Shown: one piece after another, positions 1-50,920 of the stretch | Layout of the letters: every line of letters starts with the position of its first letter | How positions within the stretch are numbered: position 1 is the stretch's first letter | Origin: Candidatus Parcubacteria bacterium | Lineage (GTDB): Bacteria > Patescibacteriota > Minisyncoccia > Phycocordibacterales > UBA2100 | NCBI GenBank assembly: GCA_003599295.1 | Contig: QZJK01000011.1 | Span: 13,372-77,371 of the forward strand | Direction: 5' to 3' | Length of the DNA stretch: 64,000 bases | Made by a program: the position numbers and the translations under genes | The notes under the pieces: generated by a model | Told to the model about the DNA's origin: nothing | What the model saw: only the letters and a program-made list of their open reading frames with translations | Database searches by the model: none

Positions 1-548
1 TAGAGAAAATTCTCTGCTGCGATCTTCCGGCTTATGCCGCCGACTTTGGTCAAAAGCGGATGGCCTGCACCCATGAGAGCCGCAGCGGGCATGCCGTGGA
101 TGTTCCCCGAAAGAGTCGTCTCGTGCGTATTGGCATCCGGATGCGCGTCTATCCAGATGACGCCGAGCGAACGATGCGCGAGCGCAGCTCCTGCGATAGT
201 GCCTATTGCCATAGAGTGGTCTCCTCCGAGCGCTAAGACGAAATCCCCGTGGCGAGCCGCCTTCTCTACGGCGGCGCAGGAATCGCGGGCGGTCATCGCT
301 ATTTCCTCAAGATATTTCGCCGAACCGGCGCTCGCCGTATACGTCGGCTTCGGACACGCTACCATTTTCGTTTCAGATACGTCGAAATGGAGAGACGTAA
401 TGACTTTCTCGAGCCCCTTATCCAAGAGATAACGCGGTGCTTTCGCGAGCCCGCGTTCATCCGAACCAAGTTCGATGGGAACACCGACGATGCTGACACT
501 ACCGCCCTGGAGTTCGTGCTCGTAGAATGAAAGATTATCTCGTTTCAT
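1..548 (-). CDS. Arginase/agmatinase-family ureohydrolase. It is partial: the ATG is at 548 and the ORF runs off the window start.
   Basis: Manual minus-strand translation gives MKRDNLSFYEHELQGGSVSIVGVPIELGSDERGLAKAPRYL...GGDHSMAIGTI...IWIDAHPDANT. GGDHS and DAHxD are the arginase-family metal-binding motifs. The ORF track omits it because it is truncated at the edge. Confidence 0.65.
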   Translation of the reverse strand, partial: MKRDNLSFYEHELQGGSVSIVGVPIELGSDERGLAKAPRYLLDKGLEKVITSLHFDVSETKMVACPKPTYTASAGSAKYLEEIAMTARDSCAAVEKAARHGDFVLALGGDHSMAIGTIAGAALAHRSLGVIWIDAHPDANTHETTLSGNIHGMPAAALMGAGHPLLTKVGGISRKIAAENFL

Positions 549-668
549 CTCGTTGCCCCAACAATAGCAACTGCGCGCGGGTTGTCCGCTTCCCTGCGGC
601 GAAACTGTGGACAAGGTTCCGCGCCCAAATCTGAATTTCGAGAAAGCGCTTTTGTTATACTCATGTAT

Positions 669-1487
669 ATGAAGACAATCCGTCTGAATGATGCAGCACA
701 TATTCCCGTCATCGGATTGGGTACCTGGAACCTGAACGGAGAAAGCTGCGTTGAAAGTGTCGAGACCGCGCTCACACTCGGATATCGGCACATCGACACG
801 GCTGATGCGTACGGCAATCACCATGAAGTCGCTGAAGGCGTGCGGCGCGCTGGCATCCCGCGCGAGGAACTTTTTATTACAACGAAGCTTCCCTTGAGTA
901 ATGGGTATGCACGAGACACCGTGCTTGCGAGCGGCGAAAGATTTTTAAAAGAACTCGGCATCGAATACATCGACCTTCTTCTCATCCACTGGCCGGATCG
1001 CTCGTATCCTTTCTCTGAAACGCTTGGCGCGATGAACGAACTTAAAACGAAAGGCATGGTGCGTGCCCTCGGCGTATCTAACTTCACGCCGCACCATTTG
1101 GAAGATGCGTTCGCGACGGGAATCGAGATAACGAACAATCAAGTCGAACTGCATCCTTCCTTCAATCAAAAAGTCCTGCGTGAATTCTGTGCGTCGAAAG
1201 GTATCGCAATTACCGCATACTCTCCACTCGGAAGAAAACGGGATCTGGCATTGGCGCTTCTTCTCGAACTCGCAAAAAAATATTCCGCGACACCAGCGCA
1301 AATCGCGCTTAATTGGATTCTTTCGCGCGGTATGATAGCGATACCGAAAAGTTCACATCCGGAGCGTATCAAGGAAAATTTCGAAGCAACATCATTCGTC
1401 ATGGACGAGGCGGATTTGAGGCGCATTGATGAAATGCCCCAAGGCGAACGCATTGTGTGGCCCACATTCGCGGATTTTAAGTACTGA
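669..1487 (+). CDS. Aldo/keto reductase, 2,5-diketo-D-gluconate reductase-like.
   Basis: IPVIGLGTW...HIDTADAYGNH...LIHWP...ALGVSNF...IPKSSHPERIKEN are typical AKR motifs. The start is probably ATG 663 or 669; the upstream part of the 582 ORF has no homology. Confidence 0.85.
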   Translation: MKTIRLNDAAHIPVIGLGTWNLNGESCVESVETALTLGYRHIDTADAYGNHHEVAEGVRRAGIPREELFITTKLPLSNGYARDTVLASGERFLKELGIEYIDLLLIHWPDRSYPFSETLGAMNELKTKGMVRALGVSNFTPHHLEDAFATGIEITNNQVELHPSFNQKVLREFCASKGIAITAYSPLGRKRDLALALLLELAKKYSATPAQIALNWILSRGMIAIPKSSHPERIKENFEATSFVMDEADLRRIDEMPQGERIVWPTFADFKY

Positions 1488-1582
1488 TTGACTTCATTCT
1501 TGTGGGTGCATAAAGTTGAGTGAGAGATTCCACGCCGTGGAATCTTAATGTTCTGATCTCACGTAGAACAGGGAGTGAAAGA

Positions 1583-2446
1583 ATGAACGCAACCTTCAAT
1601 CTTTCCGGGACGTTCGTCGTCATGGGCGTCTTGAACAGCTATTCGCTCGCCTGGCAGATCGCTGAGCGCTTGAGGCGAAGTGGAGCGGATGTCATCGTTA
1701 CGTGCCAGTCATTAGACCTCTTGCCGAACGTCAAGAAGCTCGGTGAGAAGGTCGGGATCCGCTCGATATTCGTCTGCGACATGGAGAAATCGGAAGACAT
1801 GGATGCGTTCTTCGCGGAACTTGCGAATCACGCACCCATCGCCGGTTTCGTGCACGGAGCGGCCTATTCAGATCCCAAGGAACTAACGGGCCGCCTCGTC
1901 GACATGTCGCGCGACAACTTCGTGCGCACAATGGTCGTATCCTGCTACACGTTCCTCGACTGCTGCAGGCGCGTGGAACCGCTCATGGAGAACGGTGGCA
2001 AGATACTGACACTTACCTTCGGAGCGTCGCTTGCGAGTTGCGACAACTACAACGGCATGGGGCTTGCGAAAGCGGCTCTTGAGGCTGCTGTACGTGCCGC
2101 CGCGCGCGATTTCGGCGGACGAGAGATCGCAGTAAACGCGTTGTCACCCACAACGATGCGGACGGCGGCGGCACGTTCCGTCAAGGATCCATATCCGCTT
2201 GCCTACACGTGGATCGCAACCTCTCTTTTCGGACGAATCACCAAGCCGGAGGAAGTCGCGGCATGGGGAGCCTTCCTCCTCAGTCCGTTGAGCGACGGAA
2301 TGACCGGGGAGGTCGTCTATATCGACTGTGGAAAACGCAGTTCGGGCATGCCGCCGAAGCGTCATGCGCATCTTGTCGCCGAGATGAATGGAAAATACAA
2401 TCCAAGTAGTGCCACGACAAGTGCGGCAGCGACAACGGGCGAATAG
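1583..2446 (+). CDS. fabI: Enoyl-[acyl-carrier-protein] reductase (NADH), FabI-like SDR.
   Basis: LSGTFVVMGVLNSYSLAWQIAERL, NALSPTTMRTAAA and GEVVYIDCG align with FabI signature regions. RBS gggagtg lies before ATG 1583. Confidence 0.7.
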   Translation: MNATFNLSGTFVVMGVLNSYSLAWQIAERLRRSGADVIVTCQSLDLLPNVKKLGEKVGIRSIFVCDMEKSEDMDAFFAELANHAPIAGFVHGAAYSDPKELTGRLVDMSRDNFVRTMVVSCYTFLDCCRRVEPLMENGGKILTLTFGASLASCDNYNGMGLAKAALEAAVRAAARDFGGREIAVNALSPTTMRTAAARSVKDPYPLAYTWIATSLFGRITKPEEVAAWGAFLLSPLSDGMTGEVVYIDCGKRSSGMPPKRHAHLVAEMNGKYNPSSATTSAAATTGE

Positions 2447-2457
2447 CGGAGGAAGAC

Positions 2458-2700
2458 ATGTCTACCAGCAACCTTCTCTCGGCGGAGCTGACGAGGACGC
2501 TCAACGAGTTGCTGATCGCAGCCCGGAAGGCCCAACTCTCAGTCACCGAGGCAACAAGGAAGATCTCGGAACAACTCGAGGACTTGGGATTGGACCGAGG
2601 CTTCGTCATCGTCGAAGAACTCGTTATCACTCCAGGTCTTCAGGGAGCAAGGGTGGTTCTTCAGTTCCTCGGCGGAACTGAAGAAACTATCACGGTGTGA
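2458..2700 (+). CDS. Hypothetical small protein, 80 aa.
   Basis: Good RBS ggaggaagac before the ATG and host-like GC. No recognisable motif. Confidence 0.4.
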   Translation: MSTSNLLSAELTRTLNELLIAARKAQLSVTEATRKISEQLEDLGLDRGFVIVEELVITPGLQGARVVLQFLGGTEETITV

Positions 2701-2715
2701 CCGTGACTCGATATC

Positions 2716-2749
2716 GGCCGCGGCAGGGTTCTATCCCCGCCGCGGCGAC
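2716..2749 (+). terminator. GC-rich hairpin cggccgcggc-N14-gccgcggcg followed by acttcttta. Possibly the terminator of the 2458-2700 gene and/or the island boundary.
   Basis: Palindrome read directly from sequence. Its loop, agggttctatcccc, resembles a tRNA T-loop. Confidence 0.3.
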
Positions 2750-2930
2750 TTCTTTATGCCGGGAAGCGCAATAAGAGAAACTGCGAATCTATGACCCAAG
2801 TGGGACAGAATTGGAACCAGCTTATCACAGAGCTAAATCAGTGGCACCAGTTTGGCCGCGATTATGAGAATGCCTGCTTATCAGGCAAAAAACAGGCATT
2901 GGAGTTGGCCAGATGAAGTGCCTTTAGGGA

Positions 2931-3287
2931 TTAGAACAAAAGAGAAAGTAAAGAAAGGGCGGCTGCAACAACGGCAGTAACCAACCCCACAAAACCAATC
3001 GGCTCTTTATAAAAATGCTTGCGAATGAAACCGCCCCAACTATCGCCCAGTGCAAATAAATATTCCGCCTCATCCGTTAAGAAAAGTCGCGATTCATTGG
3101 AAAGTTGTTGTCCAAGCCGGTTATTTGTTCGTATCCAATTCCCATCCGCTTCTCTTAATCGGTCATATATCACTTCTTCCCCAACTTTAAGGCCTCGGGA
3201 GACTTCTTTCTTCGTGGTGTTCAAATCAATACCTCTATGAGACTTAAGATACGTATAAATCTCTTTGTCTATTTCATTGGTTTTCAC
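2931..3287 (-). CDS. Hypothetical tail-anchored membrane protein, island-borne. Possible GTG/TTG start.
   Basis: AT-rich ORF with a C-terminal hydrophobic helix (GFVGLVTAVVAAALSLLSLLF). The longer ORF to 3527 would overlap the opposing 3327 ORF. Confidence 0.3.
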   Translation of the reverse strand: MKTNEIDKEIYTYLKSHRGIDLNTTKKEVSRGLKVGEEVIYDRLREADGNWIRTNNRLGQQLSNESRLFLTDEAEYLFALGDSWGGFIRKHFYKEPIGFVGLVTAVVAAALSLLSLLF

Positions 3288-3326
3288 ATACAACACAGTA
3301 AATGATAAAATGATTCTTATCAAACC

Positions 3327-3701
3327 ATGAGAGGCGGATATAGGGCAGGAGCGGGGCGGAAAAAGGGGTTCGCTGCAAAAAATGCAGAAGAAGCTCGAAA
3401 GTATCTTTCCGAACGAGTGGCGGAGGAAATTGAGCCCATCACCACTAGCCTGATAAACAGGGCAAAAACAGGCGATATACGCGCCATCCATGAGCTTCTT
3501 GATCGCGCATGGGGTCGCCCGACACAAGCAATACAGATTACCTCCGAACGCTTGCCGGTGCCAATAATGGGATTACATTTCGAGAAGATGTCTGACGAAG
3601 ACCTTCATCAATACGCTCTGACGGATGATGAGCGTGCTATGCTCGAAAGGCGGTTACTCCCCTCGAAAACGCGGGAAAAGACGCCGTCCACTGCGGATTG
3701 A
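3327..3701 (+). CDS. Hypothetical basic protein, island-borne.
   Basis: 124-aa ORF (MRGGYRAGAGRKKGF...) with no recognisable catalytic motif. Possibly a DNA-binding or phage-like protein. Confidence 0.35.
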   Translation: MRGGYRAGAGRKKGFAAKNAEEARKYLSERVAEEIEPITTSLINRAKTGDIRAIHELLDRAWGRPTQAIQITSERLPVPIMGLHFEKMSDEDLHQYALTDDERAMLERRLLPSKTREKTPSTAD

Positions 3702-3961
3702 GCATAAACATCACAAAGGTGGCGCAAGAAGAATTCCGGTGCTAGTCTGATAAGCACAGGTTGAATATTGGCTCGTGAGAGCAAGACCTAAACCATCGCT
3801 TCGGCGGTGGCATGGTCGGGTAGACCGGTAAAGGACAGAAAACCCGTTGTGGGAACTGCCTTTACCGGCCATGTCGGGAAACCGGCGTGGATGGGGCTTC
3901 GGCTCCGTCAACCCGCAGCGGGCTTTGTGTTTTATCGGATAAAGTGATAAATAGATTGCGT

Positions 3962-4807
3962 ATGTTCGACTTTTTCCAAGCTATATTCGCAAAAATAACC
4001 TCATTTGTAGTTGGGGTCGTTATGGCCACTGGGTTAGTTCCCCCTCCTACAGCTCAACCATTGGCGACATCTACGGAACAGGTAGCTCTAGAGGTCATTC
4101 AAGAAGAAAGCGCTACAAGCTCACAGTCCGCCTCAGATCCTGAAGGATTTGGAAAAGAAACAAAAGAGGATGAAGAGGATGCCGACCTAAAAGCGGAGGC
4201 TGAGCGACTTAGAGCTGAACGAGACAGAGCAGAGGCGGCTAGAGCTAAGGCGGATGCGGCACGCGCGAAAGCTGAACAGATACAAATTCTTAACGACACG
4301 GCAAATAAGCTACAGAGCGATTTAGAAAAGACCCTTGCTGAAGAGGAGGCCAAAAAAGCTACTCTCGAAAAAGAGAAACGCGAGGAAGAAACGGCAACTC
4401 ATCAAACTGAGTCGGAAACTAATCTTGCAGAGCAGGAGCGGATGAAGAAGATAGATGAGATTCAAAAAGAATATCTCCTCAAAATTAATGCGCTGGAGAA
4501 GCAGTTGCTTGAACTCGGATTCTTCGACGGCAGAGAAAGAGACATCATTGATATCTACGAAAAATACATGTATTCAGTCCCCGAAGAAGTTAAAGCCGGT
4601 CTCGGATACATTCCTAGTAAGTATCAGTTAAGCGCAGTGACAAGGATATACGTGGCCGCCGAGAATAGAGATAAAACACTGGTGCAGGACAAGCATTACT
4701 CGCTACTCAGTGCTATCAAGGAAGCATTGGGTTCGGTAAAAAGAGAGGTGCGAGATGAAATCAACTTCTTGCAGAATGAGAAGGACAGAAAGATTTTAGA
4801 GGCTTAG
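3962..4807 (+). CDS. Membrane-anchored coiled-coil protein.
   Basis: N-terminal TM helix (FAKITSFVVGVVMATGLV) followed by a long Ala/Glu/Lys-rich heptad-like region (AEAERLRAERDRAEAARAKADAARAKAEQ). Confidence 0.5.
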   Translation: MFDFFQAIFAKITSFVVGVVMATGLVPPPTAQPLATSTEQVALEVIQEESATSSQSASDPEGFGKETKEDEEDADLKAEAERLRAERDRAEAARAKADAARAKAEQIQILNDTANKLQSDLEKTLAEEEAKKATLEKEKREEETATHQTESETNLAEQERMKKIDEIQKEYLLKINALEKQLLELGFFDGRERDIIDIYEKYMYSVPEEVKAGLGYIPSKYQLSAVTRIYVAAENRDKTLVQDKHYSLLSAIKEALGSVKREVRDEINFLQNEKDRKILEA

Positions 4808-5219
4808 GAGCTTGTGCACACGGACATACAGCCCCGATAACTTTATTGACTTTACCTGTTTGTGCGATATGCTTTTACATAGTTCTTTTCATTCAAATAT
4901 AACTTGTGATGGCATGATGGGTTAGAGCTGAAAAGACACATCCTGTCGTCGCGAGAGTCCAACGAATGCGGTTCGTCAACAGAGGCAAGCCAGAATTTTT
5001 GGCTGACACACCTATAACTGGTGGTAAAAACGCTGTGAGAAGCAGCTTTAACTTCTCGAGGTTGTTTTGGGGTTATCAGTTCCTCTCAAAAAATGGAGTA
5101 GGCACCTCTGAGGCAGAAATGTGTTGAGTTGGTAATTCGATAGCATGCTTTTTGAGCGTGCCCATATTGAGTTACCAATTCGACACATCGTAAGATTTAG
5201 GTAACACATAAAGGCAGAG

Positions 5220-5244
5220 AAGCGGCTATCGATGCCGCTTTTTT
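5220..5244 (+). terminator. Rho-independent terminator: aagcggc-tatcgat-gccgctt followed by TTTTTT.
   Basis: Perfect 7-bp stem plus a T6 run, read directly. Confidence 0.55.
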
Positions 5245-5349
5245 GTTTGCGGCATCCTTCCACAAGCGAAGCCCTCTTTTGGGTTGGCAGTCTCATGGAA
5301 GGAGCTGCCAAGCCAATAGCGGGCTTTATCAATTATTAGTAGCCACAAT

Positions 5350-5571
5350 ATGCTTGGAAAAGTAAAGTCCATAGTCATTTTTGCTCCCAAGAAGCGGCGG
5401 ATCAACATCGAGGTCAATGGTGTCATTGCGAAGACGTTCATAGTCGATGGTTATGGGAACAGTAAACGGTGGGAAAAGGTAAGCGTGGGAGACCTGTTAG
5501 ATGGGCTCGATTGGGCTGAGGAAGAATCTCGCATCATAGACGCTGATTCCAAAATCACCGTTCTTAAATAG
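5350..5571 (+). CDS. Hypothetical 73-aa protein directly upstream of the recombinase.
   Basis: ORF only. Its position is reminiscent of a directionality factor, but there is no sequence support. Confidence 0.25.
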   Translation: MLGKVKSIVIFAPKKRRINIEVNGVIAKTFIVDGYGNSKRWEKVSVGDLLDGLDWAEEESRIIDADSKITVLK

Positions 5572-5765
5572 TCCCATGATTAGTGTCGAGAAGTGCAGGG
5601 AACTATTGGGCGATGAGAGCCTCACAGACGAGCAAATTGAGGCTCTCAGAACCGATTTATACGAGATGGCGCAACTTGCCTTCGAGACGTGGGTGCACGA
5701 AAAATACGGTTCCAAATATCCCATTGGGTCATTGCCGGATTCACTATGAGCGCTACAGTTTAGCT

Positions 5766-7295
5766 ATGGGGAATGAAGGTCAAAAAACAAGTATCATTTA
5801 CGCAAGAGTCTCTTCATGGGAGCAGGTTTCGAACACCAGCCTTGAACGGCAAGTGCGCGAATGCAGAGAGTATGCGGAGCGGAACGGTATCACTATCATC
5901 GCGGAGCCGTTCATTGAGGAGGGCGAGTCTGCAAAGAGCGCAGACAGAACTCAGTTCCAAAAAGCACTGAGCTTTTGCGCTACCAAGAAAAACAAAGTTG
6001 GATATTTAATCGTGCACAAAGTAGACCGCTTCGCTCGCAATCAAGACGATCATGTTGCCACACGGGCATTTCTCAAACGATACGGAGTGCAACTACGCTC
6101 AGTGATGGAACCGATAGACGAGAGCACAATCGGACGACTTCAAGAGGGTATCCTCTCGGTGTTTGCGGAGTTCGATAACAATGTGCGAGCGGAGAGAAGC
6201 AAAAACGGGATGATAGAGAAAGTGAAGAAAGGCATTTGGGTATGGAGGCCTCCACTTGGCTACAAACGACTCACTAAAGGCGGCAACATCGTGCCTGAGG
6301 AAGAAACAGCCCATTACATCCAGCTGATATTCGAGGAATATAGCAAAGGCACTTATAGTTTTCAGGCGTTGTCCGATTTCATGGAAAAACGTGGATTCAG
6401 GACGAGCACCGGTAAAAAACCGTGCGCACAACTCATGGAAAAGATTCTTCGCAACCCTGCTTACTTCGGAACGATTCGAGCGTGGGGGCATGAGATTCGG
6501 GGTGCATTTCCTGCAATAGTTAGTGAGGAGTTGTATTGGAAGTGTCAGCCGGAGTTGCGCAGCAGGTTTGCCATAGTAAATCGTAGTATCACCAATCCGG
6601 CATTTCCTCTCCGCAAGTTCACAATTTGCCCTGAGTGCGGCCGCCCGCTTACAGGAAGCTTCTCCACCGGCAGAAAAGGAATGAAATACCCTTACTATCA
6701 TCACCAGAAGCAATCATGCTCTGCTGCGTCGTTTATCCCGAAGGAAACGCTGGAACAGCACTTCGTAGAGTTCCTACAAGAAATTAGTCCGCGTGCGCGG
6801 AACGAGAGGCTATTTAAGGCAGTTGTCGTTGATTTATGGCAAAAGAATTACAAGAAGTTGGATGAGGACAACGTGCGTGTCCGTAGGGAGATAGAATGGC
6901 TTGAGGCAGAACGTCAGCGGGTTTTTGATATGCACCGCACTGGCAAATATTCGGATGACGAGTTTTTAGAGCAGAAGCACCTTGTAAACATTCAGATTCA
7001 GCAAAAGAAGAATCTACTCGATGATAAGCGCATTGAGGAGTTCAACATGGACGAAGCACTTACCTATTGCTTCAACTACGTGCGCGAAAGTGGCAAGACA
7101 TGGAAACGGCTTGAGAAGGTTCCGGCGATACGTGTGCGGTTCCAAAAAGCCGCGTTCCCTGAAAAAGTGACTTTTGACGGCAAGAAATTTGGAACCAAGA
7201 AAATGTCGCTCGTTTACGAGCTGAATCAGGGGAAGAACCCCAAAAAATCTCAGATGGTGACCCTATCGGGAATCGAACCCGAGTTAACAGCTTGA
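5766..7295 (+). CDS. Large serine recombinase (resolvase/integrase family).
   Basis: N-terminal resolvase catalytic region IIYARVSS..Q..SLERQ. Then DRFARN, a recombinase domain and a zinc-ribbon (CPECGRP...). The last ~13 codons are antisense of tRNA-Glu, so the true C-terminus may be slightly different. Confidence 0.85.
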   Translation: MGNEGQKTSIIYARVSSWEQVSNTSLERQVRECREYAERNGITIIAEPFIEEGESAKSADRTQFQKALSFCATKKNKVGYLIVHKVDRFARNQDDHVATRAFLKRYGVQLRSVMEPIDESTIGRLQEGILSVFAEFDNNVRAERSKNGMIEKVKKGIWVWRPPLGYKRLTKGGNIVPEEETAHYIQLIFEEYSKGTYSFQALSDFMEKRGFRTSTGKKPCAQLMEKILRNPAYFGTIRAWGHEIRGAFPAIVSEELYWKCQPELRSRFAIVNRSITNPAFPLRKFTICPECGRPLTGSFSTGRKGMKYPYYHHQKQSCSAASFIPKETLEQHFVEFLQEISPRARNERLFKAVVVDLWQKNYKKLDEDNVRVRREIEWLEAERQRVFDMHRTGKYSDDEFLEQKHLVNIQIQQKKNLLDDKRIEEFNMDEALTYCFNYVRESGKTWKRLEKVPAIRVRFQKAAFPEKVTFDGKKFGTKKMSLVYELNQGKNPKKSQMVTLSGIEPELTA

Positions 7296-7329
7296 AAAGC
7301 TGCTGTCCTAACCACTAGACGATAGGGCC
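7255..7329 (-). tRNA. tRNA-Glu, anticodon TTC, CCA encoded.
   Basis: Minus-strand sequence GGCCCTATCGTCTAGTGGTTAGGACAGCAGCTTTTCAAGCTGTTAACTCGGGTTCGATTCCCGATAGGGTCACCA folds as a cloverleaf with anticodon loop TTTTCAA. Confidence 0.8.
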
Positions 7330-7410
7330 GTCTTTTCCATGACGGAAAAGGTGCAAGCATCATACGTTTTTTTGGAGGACTTGGCAAAAAATGCTAGTGT
7401 TTCTGTGTTT

Positions 7411-7497
7411 GGAAGCGTGGCTGAGTGGTCGAAGGCACCGCACTCGAAATGCGGCATGGGGGAAACTCCATCGGAGGTTCGAATCCTCCCGCTTCCG
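7411..7497 (+). tRNA. tRNA-Ser, anticodon CGA, with long variable arm.
   Basis: GGAAGCGTGGCTGAGTGGTCGAAGGCACCGCACTCGAAATGCGG...GGAGGTTCGAATCCTCCCGCTTCCG. Anticodon stem is ccgca/tgcgg with loop ctCGAaa. Confidence 0.8.
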
Positions 7498-7508
7498 CAG
7501 CAATAGTT

Positions 7509-9179
7509 TTATTTCCGTTTAGAAACCCTTTCAATCGCCGCTTTGATGAATGCGGTAAAAAGCGGGTGCGGTGAGAGCGGGCGGGCACGAAGTTCCGGAT
7601 GGAATTGAGTGCCAACCATAAATGGATGCGCGTCTTTCGGAAGCTCTGCTATCTCCATGAGCTTACCGTCCTGCCAGCGTCCTGAAAATACGAGTCCCGC
7701 CTTCTCGAGCTGCTCCACATACTTGGGATTTATCTCATAGCGATGACGGTGGCGTTCGGACACTTCCTTTTCCCCATACGCTTCACGGACGATGCTCCCC
7801 TCTTTGAGGATGCATGGATACGCGCCGAGACGCATCGAGCCGCCGTAGTCTTTCCGCGCAAGCTTCTCTTTCTGATCCGGAAGGATGTCTATGACCGGAT
7901 GCGGTGTTTTCTCGTTTATTTCCGTCGTATTCGCGTCCTTGAGTCCCGCGGCATTCCGCGCATATTCAATGACCAGCATGTGGAGCCCGTAGCAAAGGCC
8001 GAAATACGGGATTTTATTCTCGCGAGCGAACTGTGCCGTTCGTATCTTTCCCTCGATACCCGTCTCGCCGAATCCGCCGGGGACGATGATACCGTCGTAC
8101 TCGGCAAGCGATTCTACGGGAAGTTTTCCGCTCTCGATATCTTTCGCGTTTATCCACGCTATCTCCGGTTTGTATTTCAAACTGTACGCAGAGAACTTGA
8201 TGGCCTCGATGACAGAGAGGTACGCATCGGAAAGAACGAAATCTCCCGTATCAAAATACTTACCGACGATGCCTATCTTCACCGTTCCGTTCCCGTTGTG
8301 CGCGTGCTCCGCGAATTTCTTCCACACCGAAAGATCCGCCGGCGGTGCATCTTCTTTCCCGAGCGCTTCCAAAAGAGTGTCGGAGAGCTTGTCTCGTTCG
8401 AAATTGAGCGGCACGTCATAGATGGATTCCACGTCCGGCGCGGAGATGATGCGGTCTGCGGGTACGTTGCACCAAATCGCCAATTTTTCTTTTCGCTTCC
8501 TATCCAACAGATGCGTGGAGCGAGCGATGATGACATCCGGTTGTACCCCGTACGAATTCAGCATGCGTACCGCGTTCTGCGTCGGCTTCGTTTTCATTTC
8601 GCCGAGCGCCCCTGGTACGGGCAAGTAGGAAACCATGACGAACAGCACGTCTTCGGGGTCAAGCAGGTGCATGACGCGCGCCGCCTCGATGAAAAGTGCG
8701 TTCTGAAAATCGCCGATGGTACCGCCTATCTCAATGACCGACACATCCGACTTCGATGCCGCAGCGGCGCGCTTTAAACGGTCGGTTATCTCATCGCGCA
8801 CGTGCGGTATCGCTTCCACGCACTTTCCTCCGTAATCCAAATTGCGTTCGCGCTCGATAACGGAGCGATACACCATGCCGCTCGTCATGTAGTCGTCGGG
8901 ACCAAGATCGCGGTCGAGAAAGCGTTCGTAGTTCCCCATGTCTTGGTCCGTCTCAAGACCCGAATCCAAGACGAATACTTCCCCGTGCTCAATGGGGTTC
9001 ATGGTGCCCGCATCCACGTTGAGATACGGATCGACTTTCACGAGATTTACCGAGAGTCCGCGCGCGGTCAGAAGTTTTCCTATCGAAGCGGTCGCAATGC
9101 CTTTGCCGACGCCGGACATGACACCGCCGATGACAAAGATGTATTTATGCCCATCTTTTTTGCGCGCACGCACTGCCAT
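7509..9179 (-). CDS. pyrG: CTP synthase.
   Basis: N-terminus KYIFVIGGVMSGVGKGI, a glutamine amidotransferase region and a full-length 556-aa ORF. Confidence 0.95.
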   Translation of the reverse strand: MAVRARKKDGHKYIFVIGGVMSGVGKGIATASIGKLLTARGLSVNLVKVDPYLNVDAGTMNPIEHGEVFVLDSGLETDQDMGNYERFLDRDLGPDDYMTSGMVYRSVIERERNLDYGGKCVEAIPHVRDEITDRLKRAAAASKSDVSVIEIGGTIGDFQNALFIEAARVMHLLDPEDVLFVMVSYLPVPGALGEMKTKPTQNAVRMLNSYGVQPDVIIARSTHLLDRKRKEKLAIWCNVPADRIISAPDVESIYDVPLNFERDKLSDTLLEALGKEDAPPADLSVWKKFAEHAHNGNGTVKIGIVGKYFDTGDFVLSDAYLSVIEAIKFSAYSLKYKPEIAWINAKDIESGKLPVESLAEYDGIIVPGGFGETGIEGKIRTAQFARENKIPYFGLCYGLHMLVIEYARNAAGLKDANTTEINEKTPHPVIDILPDQKEKLARKDYGGSMRLGAYPCILKEGSIVREAYGEKEVSERHRHRYEINPKYVEQLEKAGLVFSGRWQDGKLMEIAELPKDAHPFMVGTQFHPELRARPLSPHPLFTAFIKAAIERVSKRK

Positions 9180-11867: not shown

Positions 11868-12764
11868 TTATTCGCGATTAAGCAGGGCGACGCGATACAT
11901 CGCAAACATGAGGACAACAGCGGCAGCATACTGGGTCCACGCAAGTACCGTGCCGTACAAAAAGTAATCGATGAAAATAGCGGTGAGCGGGAACGCGAGC
12001 TCGACGATGGTCGAGACGCTTGCCCGCGTGTGCTTGAGGCCCCGATAGTATATCCAAAGCGCGGCCATCCCCGTCGAGAATGCAATAAGCGCAAGTGTCC
12101 CGTATTGAACGAATGTAATCTCTCCGAGAGTCGGCGCGGCGCCAAGCGCGAATACGAACACGAGTGCGATAGGGACCGTGAGTAGGAATCGAAGGCCTGT
12201 AACGAATGTGTGCGAGTGGTTGAGAAGCACGTAGCGGGAAAATGCGGTTGATGTTCCCCATGCCGCCGCCGCGAGGAGCGCGTAGAGCGCCGCAACGACG
12301 TACGCTCCGCCCTCGGAGAAATTCACGAGACCATTCGGGAACGTGACGAAATAGCCGGCCGTGAGCGCGAGCGCCGCCCACGCAACATACCCTCTCGTGA
12401 TCCGTTCTTTAAGCAGAAGCCAAGCCGCGAAAATCGCGAAAAGCGGTTGAAGCTTTTGGAGAAGGAATACGACGGAAAATTGGATGAAATTCACTTTGAG
12501 GAGAGCCGTCGTGAAGAAAAGCGTCCCCAAGACTCCCGAAAAAAGCGCGACGAGGCCGATGGCCCCCCACTCGTGCTTGTTCAGCTTCTCCCCTTTCCAT
12601 GCGCGGAACAGGAAAGGCGAAATGAGAATGAGCCCTATCAAGTGTTCGAAGAACACTATCGTGACCGGGGGAAGACCGAAAAGCGAGCGGCGAAGGATGC
12701 CATCGAGAGCCCAGAGAATAGCGGCTATGAAAATAAGGAACGGGCCCGACGACATATATTGCAT
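11868..12764 (-). CDS. EamA/DMT-family transporter.
   Basis: About 10 predicted TM helices in two repeated halves. Start trimmed to MQYMSSGPF because an ArsR terminator lies at 12788-12815. Confidence 0.7.
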
Positions 12765-12787
12765 ACGAGAGTACGTGATATGAGTAA

Positions 12788-12815
12788 TAAAAAAACCCCG
12801 CTCGCTCGGGGTTAT
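12788..12815 (-). terminator. Rho-independent terminator for the arsR-family operon. On the minus strand: ccccg-agcgag-cgggg then TTTTTTT.
   Basis: Stem plus a U7 run, read directly. Confidence 0.6.
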
Positions 12816-13002
12816 GACAGACCACTCTAAAAAGAATGGCTTTGTCCTTCTTTCATCCCGACTGTACGGTCGGCACTGGAATCTCACCAGTTCGTGTCTT
12901 TTTACAGACTCGCGGGCTTTACCGCCGATTGGGACTTACACCCAACCCCGAAGGAACATGCTTAGTATACACGATTTTGAGTCTGTACGGTACCGCTCAA
13001 AC

Positions 13003-13371
13003 CTACTTTGCCAAAAATCCTGACTGACTTCGCACGCGATGTTTGTGCGTTCTCTTTTTGTGAGTCGTTTCAAGAATTTCTTTGAGTTTGCTGAGGCGCG
13101 TATCCCACTCTCGCTCCAGATGGGTAATGAATTTTTTGCCCAACTTCAACGAATTGATATCTAACAGTACTTGTACTTCACGCCCATTTGGTTTGAGGTG
13201 CACGATATTTGCAGACACGAGTACCTGTACTTGTTTTCGTGCTCCTTGTCTTGAGATATCAAGATTCTTGGTGAGACTCCCCATTGTATGTATCGCCCCA
13301 TCAGAAAGACGTTTGACGATCTCCAGTCGCACAGGGTCACCGAGTGCTTTAAAAACTTGAGCTTCTGTCAT
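13003..13371 (-). CDS. ArsR/SmtB-family HTH transcriptional regulator.
   Basis: ALGDPVRLEIVKRLSDGAIHTMGSLTKNLDISRQGARKQVQVLVSANIV is a winged-helix ArsR signature. Confidence 0.8.
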   Translation of the reverse strand: MTEAQVFKALGDPVRLEIVKRLSDGAIHTMGSLTKNLDISRQGARKQVQVLVSANIVHLKPNGREVQVLLDINSLKLGKKFITHLEREWDTRLSKLKEILETTHKKRTHKHRVRSQSGFLAK

Positions 13372-13808
13372 TTAGGTTTGCTGAAGAACTTCTCGAGACG
13401 ACCGAGCATAAATTCCCATCCTCCGGAATTCTGTTCGAATGCTTTTTCCGCCATACCTTCAGGTAATGCGGCAAAACCGGATTCTGTCATCGTGACCGTA
13501 CACGTTCCGTCCTCTTCTTTGATACTAAACTCGACCAGAGTGTTCGGTACGGTTGACACATCGCCGACAAAGTCACTGCCTCCAGGAATCCATCGATAGG
13601 CAAAGTACTCATAGGGCTTTGCCTCAACGACAGAAATTTGAGATTTGCCGTGTCCCTTAAAGACAAAAACCGGCTGTTCTCCGACCGCGTACGTGCCTTC
13701 TACGGCATCAGGGAACCATAAAATAACTTTCTTAGGATTTGCTATTGCGTCATATACCGCTTCCTTAGAAGCCTTAATGGCTACTTCGCGCTTAATTATG
13801 TCCTGCAT
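13368..13808 (-). CDS. SRPBCC/AHSA1-domain protein. This family is typically a partner of ArsR regulators.
   Basis: 146-aa ORF that overlaps the arsR start by 4 nt. The composition matches the Aha1/polyketide-cyclase-like fold, but it is not diagnostic. Confidence 0.65.
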   Translation of the reverse strand: MQDIIKREVAIKASKEAVYDAIANPKKVILWFPDAVEGTYAVGEQPVFVFKGHGKSQISVVEAKPYEYFAYRWIPGGSDFVGDVSTVPNTLVEFSIKEEDGTCTVTMTESGFAALPEGMAEKAFEQNSGGWEFMLGRLEKFFSKPK

Positions 13809-13865
13809 ACTTTTATGTACGAATTAATTATTAATGCTAATGGACGCAGTATAACAAGACGTGTA

Positions 13866-13895
13866 TAAATATGCAACCATAAAGTTGCATATTTA
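13866..13895. promoter_or_regulatory. 12-bp perfect inverted repeat TAAATATGCAAC-cataaa-GTTGCATATTTA upstream of the SRPBCC-arsR operon. Candidate ArsR operator.
   Basis: Read directly. It lies in the AT-rich promoter region about 60 bp upstream of the operon start. Confidence 0.5.
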
Positions 13896-13899
13896 TGTG

Positions 13900-14139
13900 G
13901 ATACGCTCCAATGTAGACTCAGGTCGTATCACCTTGGCTCCGCGGAGGCGCTGGGCGGCGCTCAGAGTCGCCGCGCGCGTGGCGAAATCACTTTGAATTT
14001 GATTTTTGAGCCACCAGCCGAGCTTGGAAACCCTCGGTTTTCCAACGCGCGCTTCGCGCGCTGCCTTCCGACACGGGGAACTCCCATTCCCCGACCCCCT
14101 CACACGCGAGGCGGCTCTACATTCACTACGTTCACTCTG
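13900..14139 (-). repeat. tRNA-trailer repeat element A, downstream of tRNA-Thr(CGT).
   Basis: Contains an inverted copy of the tRNA acceptor 3' end (agccgcctc), a GGGGTCGGGgaatgggagttCCCCGTG..GAAGG block, a cgcgcgaagcgcgcg hairpin and a ggaaaccc-tcg-ggtttcc hairpin. These are homologous to the elements at 15145-15318, 16046-16217 and 34774-34951. Confidence 0.45.
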
Positions 14140-34684: not shown

Positions 34685-34773
34685 GGAGAGGTGGCCGAGT
34701 GGTCGAAGGCGGCACGGTGCTAACGTGTTAGGCGGGTAAAACTGTCTCGAGGGTTCGAATCCCTCCCTCTCCG
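34685..34773 (+). tRNA. tRNA-Ser, anticodon GCT, with long variable arm.
   Basis: GGAGAGGTGGCCGAGTGGTCGAAGGCGGCACGGTGCTAACGTGTTAGGCGGGTAAAACTGTCTCGAGGGTTCGAATCCCTCCCTCTCCG. Confidence 0.8.
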
Positions 34774-34951
34774 CAGATTTGAACGCAGTGAGAATACTGC
34801 GGAGAGGAGCAAGCGCTTCGCGCTTGCGTGGAGGGATTCGAAAGTGAGCGCGGGGTGCCTGTTCAGTAGGACGGGTCGCGCGAGCAGGCCCGAGCGGAGC
34901 GAGGAGCGACGGCGACGAGCGAGCTCTTGGGAGCATCCCTCCCTCTCCGCA
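34774..34951 (+). repeat. tRNA-trailer repeat element D, downstream of tRNA-Ser(GCT). It ends in a 17-nt direct repeat of the tRNA 3' end (atccctccctctccgca).
   Basis: Direct repeat at 34759-34775 and 34935-34951. Inverted copies tgcggagaggag and cgtggagggattcgaa, the hairpin caagcgcttcgcgcttg, and the gagcggagcgaggagcgacg block shared with element C. Confidence 0.5.
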
Positions 34952-50532: not shown

Positions 50533-50920
50533 GGGGGTGACTGGCTTCGACAAGGAAATCGACATATGTGTGCGCGGGCAACGCTGTAGCTGCGTTTCAA
50601 ACCGCTACACAAATTCAAGTGCGAACAAAGTAGCACGTGCAGTTTTGTCGCCCATTCAGTTGGGTGACCTGCAGTTCGCTTACGCGAAAGCCTAAGCGAC
50701 CGTCCACTAGGCTGATACTTGATTAAGCCTTCTTGGGCGTCACTTCATTCAAGCACTGAGTGTCGAATAGTCCGATCGACCTCTAAGACTAGGACTCGGC
50801 TTTGCGCGATTCTGTTCGTCCCTTACGCGCATCGCTTAAATCTTGAGACGATCTACGCCTCGTAGATACATACATACTGTTTTTCCTTGGACTCGGGTCC
50901 GATACCCGACACCTCCACCA
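50533..50920 (+). ncRNA. ssrA: tmRNA (transfer-messenger RNA).
   Basis: 5' GGGGGTGACTGGCTTCGACAAGGAAATCGAC is the canonical tmRNA start. The 3' tRNA-like end is GGACTCGGGTCCGATACCCGACACCTCCACCA. The internal tag ORF ends in ...LQFAYAKA-stop. It sits directly after smpB and is followed by a terminator. Confidence 0.85.

Follow-up and report, generated by a model that had tools for sequence, protein, structure and literature searches.

A probable integrative element at a Kaiserbacteria tRNA-Glu gene, with a large serine recombinase gene split by integration and an orphan LOOT RNA

Why should the gene for a large serine recombinase (LSR) end inside a tRNA gene on the opposite strand? The question is raised by a stretch of 64,000 nucleotides (nt) of contig QZJK01000011.1 (assembly GCA_003599295.1, positions 13,372 to 77,371 of the forward strand), referred to here as the window. 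The host genome is that of a Candidatus Kaiserbacteria member; the pyrG of the window is 83% identical to that of Candidatus Kaiserbacteria metagenome-assembled genomes (MAGs) and 96-97% identical to metagenome proteins. GC content lies at about 54% across the window and drops to 43-49% between a FabI-like gene and tRNA-Glu. A preliminary description had reported at this place a low-GC mobile island of about 4.5 kb with an LSR of 509 amino acids (aa), and this reading is borne out by sharp homology breakpoints, a circular relative and a foreign base composition. We consider it likely that positions 2793-7260 are an integrated element of 4466 bp at the 3' end of tRNA-Glu(UUC), moved by its own LSR through an attachment site (attP) that lies within the recombinase gene, so that integration splits the gene.

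The element (2794-7260) has a GC content of 0.469 against 0.5475 for the remaining window. Across 523 segments of the same size that do not overlap the element the mean is 0.549 (standard deviation 0.0175) and the minimum 0.509, giving the element a z of -4.6, with no segment elsewhere below that minimum. The LSR (5766-7295, + strand) carries the Pfam domains Resolvase (PF00239, E = 6.3e-33, residues 10-157), Recombinase (PF07508, E = 8.7e-12) and Zn_ribbon_recom (PF13408, E = 7.8e-7), and matches the phrog_95 integrase family at 3.8e-86. The YARVSS motif, recombinase domain and CxxC zinc ribbon that had been read from the protein are all present; the ribbon reads CxxC...YYHH...C, and YARVSS is invariant in alignments of 30 and 46 homologues. 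An AlphaFold2 (AF2) model of a full-length homologue (P0002), built on the 46-sequence alignment, reaches a mean predicted local distance difference test score (pLDDT) of 87 and shows the long helices 345-392 and 398-423 of a coiled-coil insertion; in Foldseek it matches SPbeta integrase at E = 5e-18, and also the Bxb1, phiC31 and LI integrases. The window protein thus combines a resolvase-type catalytic domain and its serine with recombinase and zinc-ribbon domains and an inserted coiled coil, and is predicted to recombine attP with attB. It scores far under the NCBIfam equivalog cut-offs for CcrA/B/C and XisF, and Pfam found no Phage_integrase (tyrosine) domain in the element.

Where the element begins and ends can be read from its closest relatives. 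The nearest LSR homologue (P0001, 93% identical) is encoded on metagenome contigs L001-L003, and a relative at 92% identity comes from a Kaiserbacteria MAG (L004), whose element is also carried by L090. In blastn comparisons of the window with L001 and L004, homology is confined to the island and the three sets of flanks are unrelated. The main block (5574-7260/7267) is 86-87% identical to both contigs, with further blocks at 4739/4954-5344, at 2792/2793-2936 and, in L004 only, at 3311-3929. Homology begins abruptly at 2793 on the left and ends as abruptly at 7260/7267 on the right, that with L001 at 7260. The left junctions read AATCTAT-GA-CCCAAGTGG in the window, GCGTTGT-GA-CCCAAG in L001 and AAGTTG-GA-CCCAAGTGG in L004, and the corresponding right junctions ATGGT-GA-CCCTATCGG, ATGGT-GA-TCTAATC and ATGGT-GA-ACCCAATC. 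The sole dinucleotide common to these six junctions, from three independent insertions, is GA, which we take to be the probable cleavage and crossover dinucleotide; a GA at both ends is what the 2-bp staggered cut of a serine recombinase would leave. It places the left junction (attL) at 2793-2794, where the host flank ...GCGAATCTAT would be the former 3' trailer of tRNA-Glu in antisense, and the right junction (attR) at 7259-7260.

Both of the left ends proposed earlier fail against this boundary at 2793/2794. The GC palindrome at 2716-2749, which resembles a host hairpin of the terminator type in the former tRNA trailer, falls in host sequence, 45-80 nt beyond the homology breakpoint. The 8-bp inverted repeat (2866-2897) belongs to the element itself, where it falls inside the detached recombinase tail described below. 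A direct repeat of a tRNA-Glu fragment was also considered as the island boundary; beyond a 6-bp TGACCC, no such repeat was detected within positions 1-9000, in agreement with a 2-bp GA core.

The right end of the element falls in tRNA-Glu(UUC) (7255-7329, - strand, anticodon ttc; ARAGORN, and Rfam tRNA at 66.4 bits), which is followed by tRNA-Ser(CGA) at 7411-7498 (ARAGORN and Rfam). On the tRNA strand the crossover is TC, the final two base pairs of the acceptor stem, and the TGGT on the element side of attR provides the discriminator and the encoded CCA of the tRNA. The occupied gene reads ...GATAGGGTCA-CCA-TCTGAG; the empty site would read ...GATAGGGTCA-TAGATTC. Unoccupied tRNA-Glu(UUC) genes of related genomes have no encoded CCA (GGGTCA-CAATTT in L171, whose tRNA is 87% identical, and GGGTCA-TCGCAA in L170), and CCA is also absent from most other tRNAs of the window, which argues that the encoded CCA of this tRNA-Glu is element DNA. 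Because the crossover lies at the end of the acceptor stem, the tRNA stays whole, with its discriminator and CCA supplied by the element. In other integrated members of the family, the left flank has the sequence ...AATTGTG|ACC, which corresponds to an L171-type trailer in antisense.

This geometry answers the question of the overlapping gene. Codons 1-498 of the LSR (5766-7259) are element DNA, and the final 11 codons and stop (7260-7295) are antisense tRNA-Glu. The overlap reported in the preliminary description is real and measures 41 nt, the stop codon being 7293-7295, rather than the 40 nt given there. Within the element, the LSR gene lacks a stop codon of its own: after the junction it ends after one codon in L001, after 55 codons in L004 and after the 11 antisense codons in the window. 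Joining the window element end to end at GA lets the LSR frame run on for 40 further codons into 2794-2916 (+ strand; TQVGQNWNQLITELNQWHQFGRDYENACLSGKKQALELAR*, 40 codons and a stop), giving a protein of 538 aa. A hidden Markov model (HMM) built from full-length tails hits the window at 2794-2862 (E = 2.7e-11), and the reconstituted 538-aa LSR aligns to full-length homologues through residues 521-533, gaining 24-33 bits over the integrated form. There is therefore strong support for an attP within the LSR gene, 40 codons ahead of the stop, and for a splitting of the gene on integration; the recombinase frame runs into the tRNA because attP lies within the gene.

The same arrangement recurs across the family. 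The tail HMM finds detached tails in the window and in L001, L004, L092, L095, L096, L112, L102, L121, L122 and L125, with weaker matches in L008, L103, L107, L109, L153 and L158; the detached tails always lie upstream of the LSR on the same strand, 4.3-8 kb away. Among the best 120 homologues (55-93% identity; those with a named source are nearly all from Patescibacteria MAGs), 97 end in antisense-tRNA tails (...G(I/F/V)EP..., ...RIEL), and 10 carry a full tail with the motif xWNQL(I/V)xELxxWxxFG. Once the element is integrated, the detached tail of the window has an in-frame ATG immediately before it (2791-2793; GTG in most other elements), and could in principle be translated by itself as a 41-aa peptide.

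In the circular element, then, the LSR gene would encode 538 aa with a conserved C-terminal helix, and integration would detach the last 40 codons and have the LSR body read 11 antisense-tRNA codons in their place. The two predicted isoforms may differ in activity or stability, in which case the form of the enzyme would report the integration state. A simpler account is that the overlap of attP with the gene end is genome compaction and nothing else, with a functionless tail kept as the DNA of the P' arm of attP and with isoforms that behave alike. A codon-position test on 24 non-redundant tails bears on both. In tail codons 1-9, up to 27 nt from the crossover, identity is flat across codon positions 1, 2 and 3 (0.57/0.59/0.57) around an invariant TTGGAACCA, the signature of constraint on DNA and a point for compaction; so are the complete divergence of the tails past about 22 residues and the arbitrary tails, of 1 to 55 aa, that integrated copies accept. 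Codons 10-22, by contrast, 28-66 nt from the crossover and beyond the 25-bp half-site of an LSR, show the periodicity of protein-coding selection (0.46/0.66/0.34), the frame is open for 20-41 codons in every copy, detached ones included, and the AF2 model of P0002 folds the tail into a helix (residues 506-527, pLDDT about 90). The combination of flat codons 1-9 and periodic codons 10-22 indicates that the tail is both an attP arm and a translated peptide, and we hold pure compaction to be rather unlikely.

The tail ends have a bias of their own: about 17 of some 40 full LSR tails end in Ala and about six in -AA (LAA, VAA, QAA, AAA), resembling ssrA degradation tags; the set of full-length tails with this enrichment includes those of L005, L133, L135, L144, P0104 and P0108. 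No DNA site would explain such a bias, which is a further difficulty for the compaction account. The window's own tail ends in -LELAR, and a degron is not evident in this copy.

The reading of the locus as a mobile element whose LSR gene is split on integration predicts circles with an uninterrupted gene, and one relative appears to be such a circle. The Logan contig L009 encodes an LSR 62% identical to that of the window, and its two ends share a direct repeat of 30 nt. Since Logan assemblies use k = 31, a repeat of this length would be the k-1 signature of a circle. Closed, the contig gives a 6186-bp unit with a full-length LSR. Its copy of the LOOT RNA, an Rfam family treated below, has its 5' end cut by the contig end; closure restores the 5' helix (GACCTA...GGTC), which lends independent support to both the circularity and the attP configuration. 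Full-length tails also arise in another way. At L099 (126-12810) a single tRNA-Glu carries two different family elements in head-to-tail order, the frame of the upstream LSR-A continuing into the detached tail of the downstream element B; further tandems are found at L098, L133 and L118. The notion that all full-length tails come from excised forms was accordingly rejected. The tandem arrays imply that an occupied site (attR) can be targeted again.

From the element ends, the predicted attP junction reads CAGATGGT-GA-CCCAAGTGGG (in longer form ...AAAAAATCTCAGATGGTGACCCAAGTGGGACAGAATTGGAACC...) and the predicted empty attB junction AATCTAT-GA-CCCTATCGGG (...GAAACTGCGAATCTATGACCCTATCGGGAATCGAACCC...). 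The P' arm, CCCAAGTGGGACAGAATTGGAACC, is the first ~27 nt of the detached tail, and the B' arm, in tRNA antisense, is CCCTATCGGGAATCGAACC. The two arms have a proximal CCC..(T)GGGA block in common, and also a distal GAACC, which is found at 20-24 in P' and at 15-19 in B' and so stands 5 bp closer to the crossover in attB. GGTTC is the universal T-loop/T-stem motif of tRNAs, and the B' half-site would be the acceptor and T-arm of the tRNA, with the T-loop GGTTC serving as the motif of the zinc-ribbon domain (ZD) and TTGGAACC as its putative counterpart in attP. With a universal motif in B', the recurrent ...GIEP... tails would be accounted for, as would the jumps that occasionally lead to other tRNAs. 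The displacement of GAACC follows the rule for LI integrase and other LSRs that the ZD motif of attP lies 5 bp more distally than that of attB (Rutherford et al. 2013, PMC3783163). The P arm, TCTCAGATGGT, makes an imperfect dyad with the reverse complement of P', TCCCACTTGGG, and the B arm, that is, the tRNA trailer, is weakly conserved. With short arms, a 2-bp crossover, no long repeats and the 5-bp ZD shift, the sites look, as far as sequence can tell, like those of an LSR.

How far does tRNA targeting extend through the family? Of 68 loci from genomes and metagenomes in which the 3' end of the LSR is complete (32-100% identity), 39 have an LSR frame that ends inside an opposite-strand tRNA, and 12 have full tails. 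The targeted tRNAs are 33 Glu (17 UUC and 16 CUC), 2 Ala, 2 Lys, 1 Arg and 1 Met, and the median overlap is 41 nt, equal to that of the window. A control set of 69 LSRs taken from viral contigs (26-36% identical) contains only 5 that end in a tRNA, L044, L045 and L059 among them. A second, distant LSR of L004 (1670-3246, 23% identical) runs 62 nt into antisense tRNA-Ala(UGC), so that the layout is not limited to one LSR lineage. The preliminary description had rightly placed an integrase at an att/tRNA junction and had called this typical, which holds for tyrosine integrases; for serine integrases, according to the literature, tRNA targets were not known. They are described as 'not known for targeting tRNA genes', and 14 of 297 candidate cases are said to require proof (PMC7192596), and the mycobacteriophages with serine integrases (Int-S) do not use tRNA genes (PMC9262239). 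A full-text literature search returned no link between serine recombinases and Patescibacteria, the sole paper to name both, each of them once, having been judged by its title.

An LSR that sits beside the same tRNA in many genomes might also be a vertically inherited, domesticated enzyme, for example a host rearrangement or inversion system, that does not move. The family is indeed widespread in Patescibacteria with the same partner open reading frame (ORF) and mostly the same tRNA, and the tRNA-Glu/tRNA-Ser pair is inverted between relatives. Against this stand the close relatives L170-L175, which have tRNA-Glu and lack the LSR, as well as the foreign GC content, the near-identical copies at different insertion sites, the circular copy and a cargo that varies between elements. 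We judge such domestication extremely improbable. The comparison of relatives yielded no clean syntenic empty site. The tRNA-Glu/tRNA-Ser(CGA) pair is inverted with respect to pyrG between the window and L170/L171, other genes filling the gap; it is the 3' end of tRNA-Glu that points toward pyrG in L170/L171 and that of tRNA-Ser in the window. LSR activity at the tRNA may be the cause of this inversion.

Apart from the LSR, the mobile element carries few genes. Clustering of the ORFs of 14 delimited elements singles out one invariable module: a small ORF (53-72 aa) before the LSR in all 14, which in the window is a 57-aa ORF directly upstream (5576-5749, +). Small directionality factors of LSRs are of this size (SprB 58 aa, TP901-1 ORF7 64 aa), and by size the ORF is a candidate directionality factor or regulator, its product being the likeliest protein to act as directionality factor. 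A 124-aa ORF (3327-3701, +) resembles DUF5681 weakly (Pfam E = 4.9e-4, under the curated cut-off) and phrog_15261 (E = 4.6e-7); it is 83% identical in L004, and a DUF5681-like ORF occurs in 5 of the 14 elements. The membrane-anchored coiled-coil protein reported earlier corresponds to a 281-aa ORF (3962-4807, +) whose hydrophobic N-terminal helix and acidic coiled-coil-like region were judged by eye; it is variable cargo, with related proteins in 4 of 14 elements, and has no Pfam, NCBIfam or PADLOC match. The remaining ORFs encode 118 aa (2931-3287, -; GTG start by eye, C-terminal hydrophobic segment, weak relatives in L001 and L004) and 73 aa (5350-5571, +; relatives in the closest elements only). 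The 57-aa and 118-aa ORFs match no family in Pfam, PHROG, NCBIfam or PADLOC, and in these databases no cargo ORF scores above threshold. A Z1-domain protein is among the cargo of L009. Between the 281-aa and 73-aa ORFs, a conserved non-coding stretch of about 540 nt (4808-5349) is 72-75% identical in L001 and L004, with a promoter-like sequence at 4846-4873 and a strong terminator-like hairpin at about 5219-5245. The stretch has no Rfam match at E <= 1; candidate functions are an origin and a second transcript of the non-coding kind.

So gene-poor an island could instead be a decayed prophage or phage-satellite remnant, immobile, its LSR a relic beside a tRNA. In keeping with this, the LSR is a phrog_95 integrase, the 124-aa ORF has weak phage-type matches, searches of Pfam, PHROG, NCBIfam and PADLOC recognised no replication, transfer or virion genes, and no excised copy of this very element turned up. 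PHROG gave no structural match except a low-complexity tape-measure hit at E = 0.005, and family elements are consistently 4.3-8 kb without structural genes, which speaks against decay from a phage. All ORFs are moreover intact, the detached 40-codon tail included; elements 92-93% identical stand at three different sites; a relative of 6.2 kb is circular; and among the 2.9 million viral contigs of IMG/VR no relative of the window LSR is closer than 32%. A remnant is on this evidence quite improbable.

The element also contains a structured RNA that the preliminary description, which recorded only hypothetical proteins, the coiled-coil protein and the recombinase, had missed. A LOOT RNA (Rfam RF03000) occupies 3785-3909 (+ strand), matching the full model (positions 1-121) with 70.9 bits against a gathering score of 46.4; its predicted fold has -67.4 kcal/mol (z = -5.65 against shuffled controls). 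Upstream of LOOT lies a conserved box (ACAACTTAATA / TTGAATATTGG) ending about 7-20 nt before the 5' end, and downstream a conserved GCGGGCTTTTTGTGTT tract, in the window a GCGGGCTTTGTGTTTT tract that extends to about 3935. These promoter-like and terminator-like flanks suggest that LOOT is a separately transcribed small RNA. LOOT scores above gathering in 15 of about 24 elements whose interior is available: the window, L004, L006, L007, L009, L092, L096, L098 and L099 (two copies), and also L100, L103, L107, L109, L112 and L122. Every match lies within 3 kb upstream of an LSR gene, in either orientation. The Rfam papers present LOOT as a metagenome-derived RNA only (PMC7779021). The main text of the 2017 LOOT paper does not discuss it, and the literature searched, the supplement of that description aside, gives no organism, genetic context or function. 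Maintenance, replication or regulation are candidate roles in the element.

Taken together, these features allow a more far-reaching model, which we offer tentatively as one possibility. Full-length LSR would be made from the circle only, where the C-terminal helix would tune the coiled coil and zinc ribbon for attP x attB recombination; the tail-swapped isoform would differ in activity or stability, so that the position of attP would encode directionality and copy control without a separate sensor. In many members the full-length LSR would also end in an -LAA-like degradation signal, and LOOT would be a maintenance or replication RNA of gene-poor circles.

Several points weigh against our interpretation, from the crossover to the isoforms. 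The GA crossover is deduced from three insertions only, of which those of L001 and L004 are at non-tRNA sites (pseudo-attB sites or nested elements), and the window's own junctions share the 6-bp block TGACCC. No empty site was seen in a syntenic close relative, L170 and L171 being the nearest genomes with usable contigs. A collection searched for exact protein matches holds no entry for the window's LSR, an 80-aa flank ORF or pyrG, and no excised or junction form of the window's own element was seen in it. Some full-length tails stem from tandem insertion, as at L099, and not from circles, and since codons 1-9 of the tail are kept as DNA, part of the 'protein motif' (WN = TGGAAC) may reflect constraint on attP. 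The activity of each LSR isoform, and the difference between them, are likewise predictions from sequence.

Elsewhere in the window, a GC-rich insert of about 170 nt (34775-34950) follows tRNA-Ser(GCU) (34685-34774), and its limits are marked by a 17-nt direct repeat of the tRNA 3' end, ATCCCTCCCTCTCCGCA. Its appearance is that of a footprint or a miniature insertion associated with a tRNA, and it matches no Rfam family at gathering score. In L001, positions 5151-5263, left of the LSR element and by a tRNA-3'-end-like fragment (...CCCTAGGGGTCA), are 76% identical to it. An FMN riboswitch (12841-12959, - strand, 106.5 bits) lies within the second-lowest GC stretch (about 12750-14000), and the transfer-messenger RNA (50533-50920) has an unusually long tag, ANKVARAVLSPIQLGDLQFAYAKA, ending ...FAYAKA.

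What we rate as new is an LSR family that targets tRNAs, is abundant in Patescibacteria, has its gene split by integration and carries the orphan LOOT RNA. The directionality of serine integrases is now under structural study, and the best Foldseek matches here are SPbeta, Bxb1 and phiC31 complexes released in 2026; if true, a recombinase whose C-terminus is rewritten by integration would be a new and testable form of state-dependent control. Genome engineering may profit from an attB made of the most conserved part of a tRNA gene, namely its T-loop and acceptor stem. Patescibacteria, with few described mobile elements, gain an abundant family of integrative circles of 4-8 kb, and LOOT gains a host clade and a genetic context, its function becoming addressable on a 4.5-kb element.

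In comparison with known systems, the window LSR resembles those of phiC31, Bxb1, A118/LI, SPbeta (SprA) and TP901-1 in the order of resolvase, recombinase and zinc-ribbon domains, the coiled-coil insertion and the fold. It also shares with them short att sites, a 2-bp core without long direct repeats, motifs proximal for the recombinase domain (RD) and distal for the ZD, and a small adjacent ORF in the size range of small directionality factors. It departs from them in targeting a tRNA 3' end, in an attP inside the recombinase ORF with a protein altered by integration, in its Patescibacteria hosts and in elements of 4-8 kb without phage or conjugation genes. An att site within the integrase gene, interrupted on integration, is known from the SSV-type integrases of Sulfolobus fuselloviruses (PMC5861418), and the window element shares this placement. 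Those enzymes, however, are tyrosine recombinases of archaeal viruses, whereas the one described here is a serine recombinase in a bacterial genome; and the SSV split removes a large part of the gene, whereas in the window family the exchange affects only the last 40 codons and leaves the catalytic and DNA-binding domains whole and translatable.

Integration-dependent immunity of mycobacteriophages, in which integration removes an ssrA-like degron (PMC9262239), offers a second parallel. In phages of clusters G, N and P, attP is likewise situated within one of the element's coding genes and attB overlaps the 3' end of a tRNA, and several full-length LSR tails of the window family end in -LAA, -VAA, -QAA or -AAA. 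In those phages a repressor is truncated by a tyrosine integrase with a core of about 35 bp; in the window family it is the recombinase itself that is changed, with a core of 2 bp. Islander-type islands and tycheposons are, like this element, small cargo islands at tRNA 3' ends, and a minority of tycheposons have an LSR, but those elements are bounded by a displaced tRNA fragment that tyrosine integrases produce, and the window element has no such repeat. The LOOT RNA, finally, agrees with its family in a full-length match and a stable multi-hairpin fold, and is placed here in the LSR elements of Kaiserbacteria and other Patescibacteria.

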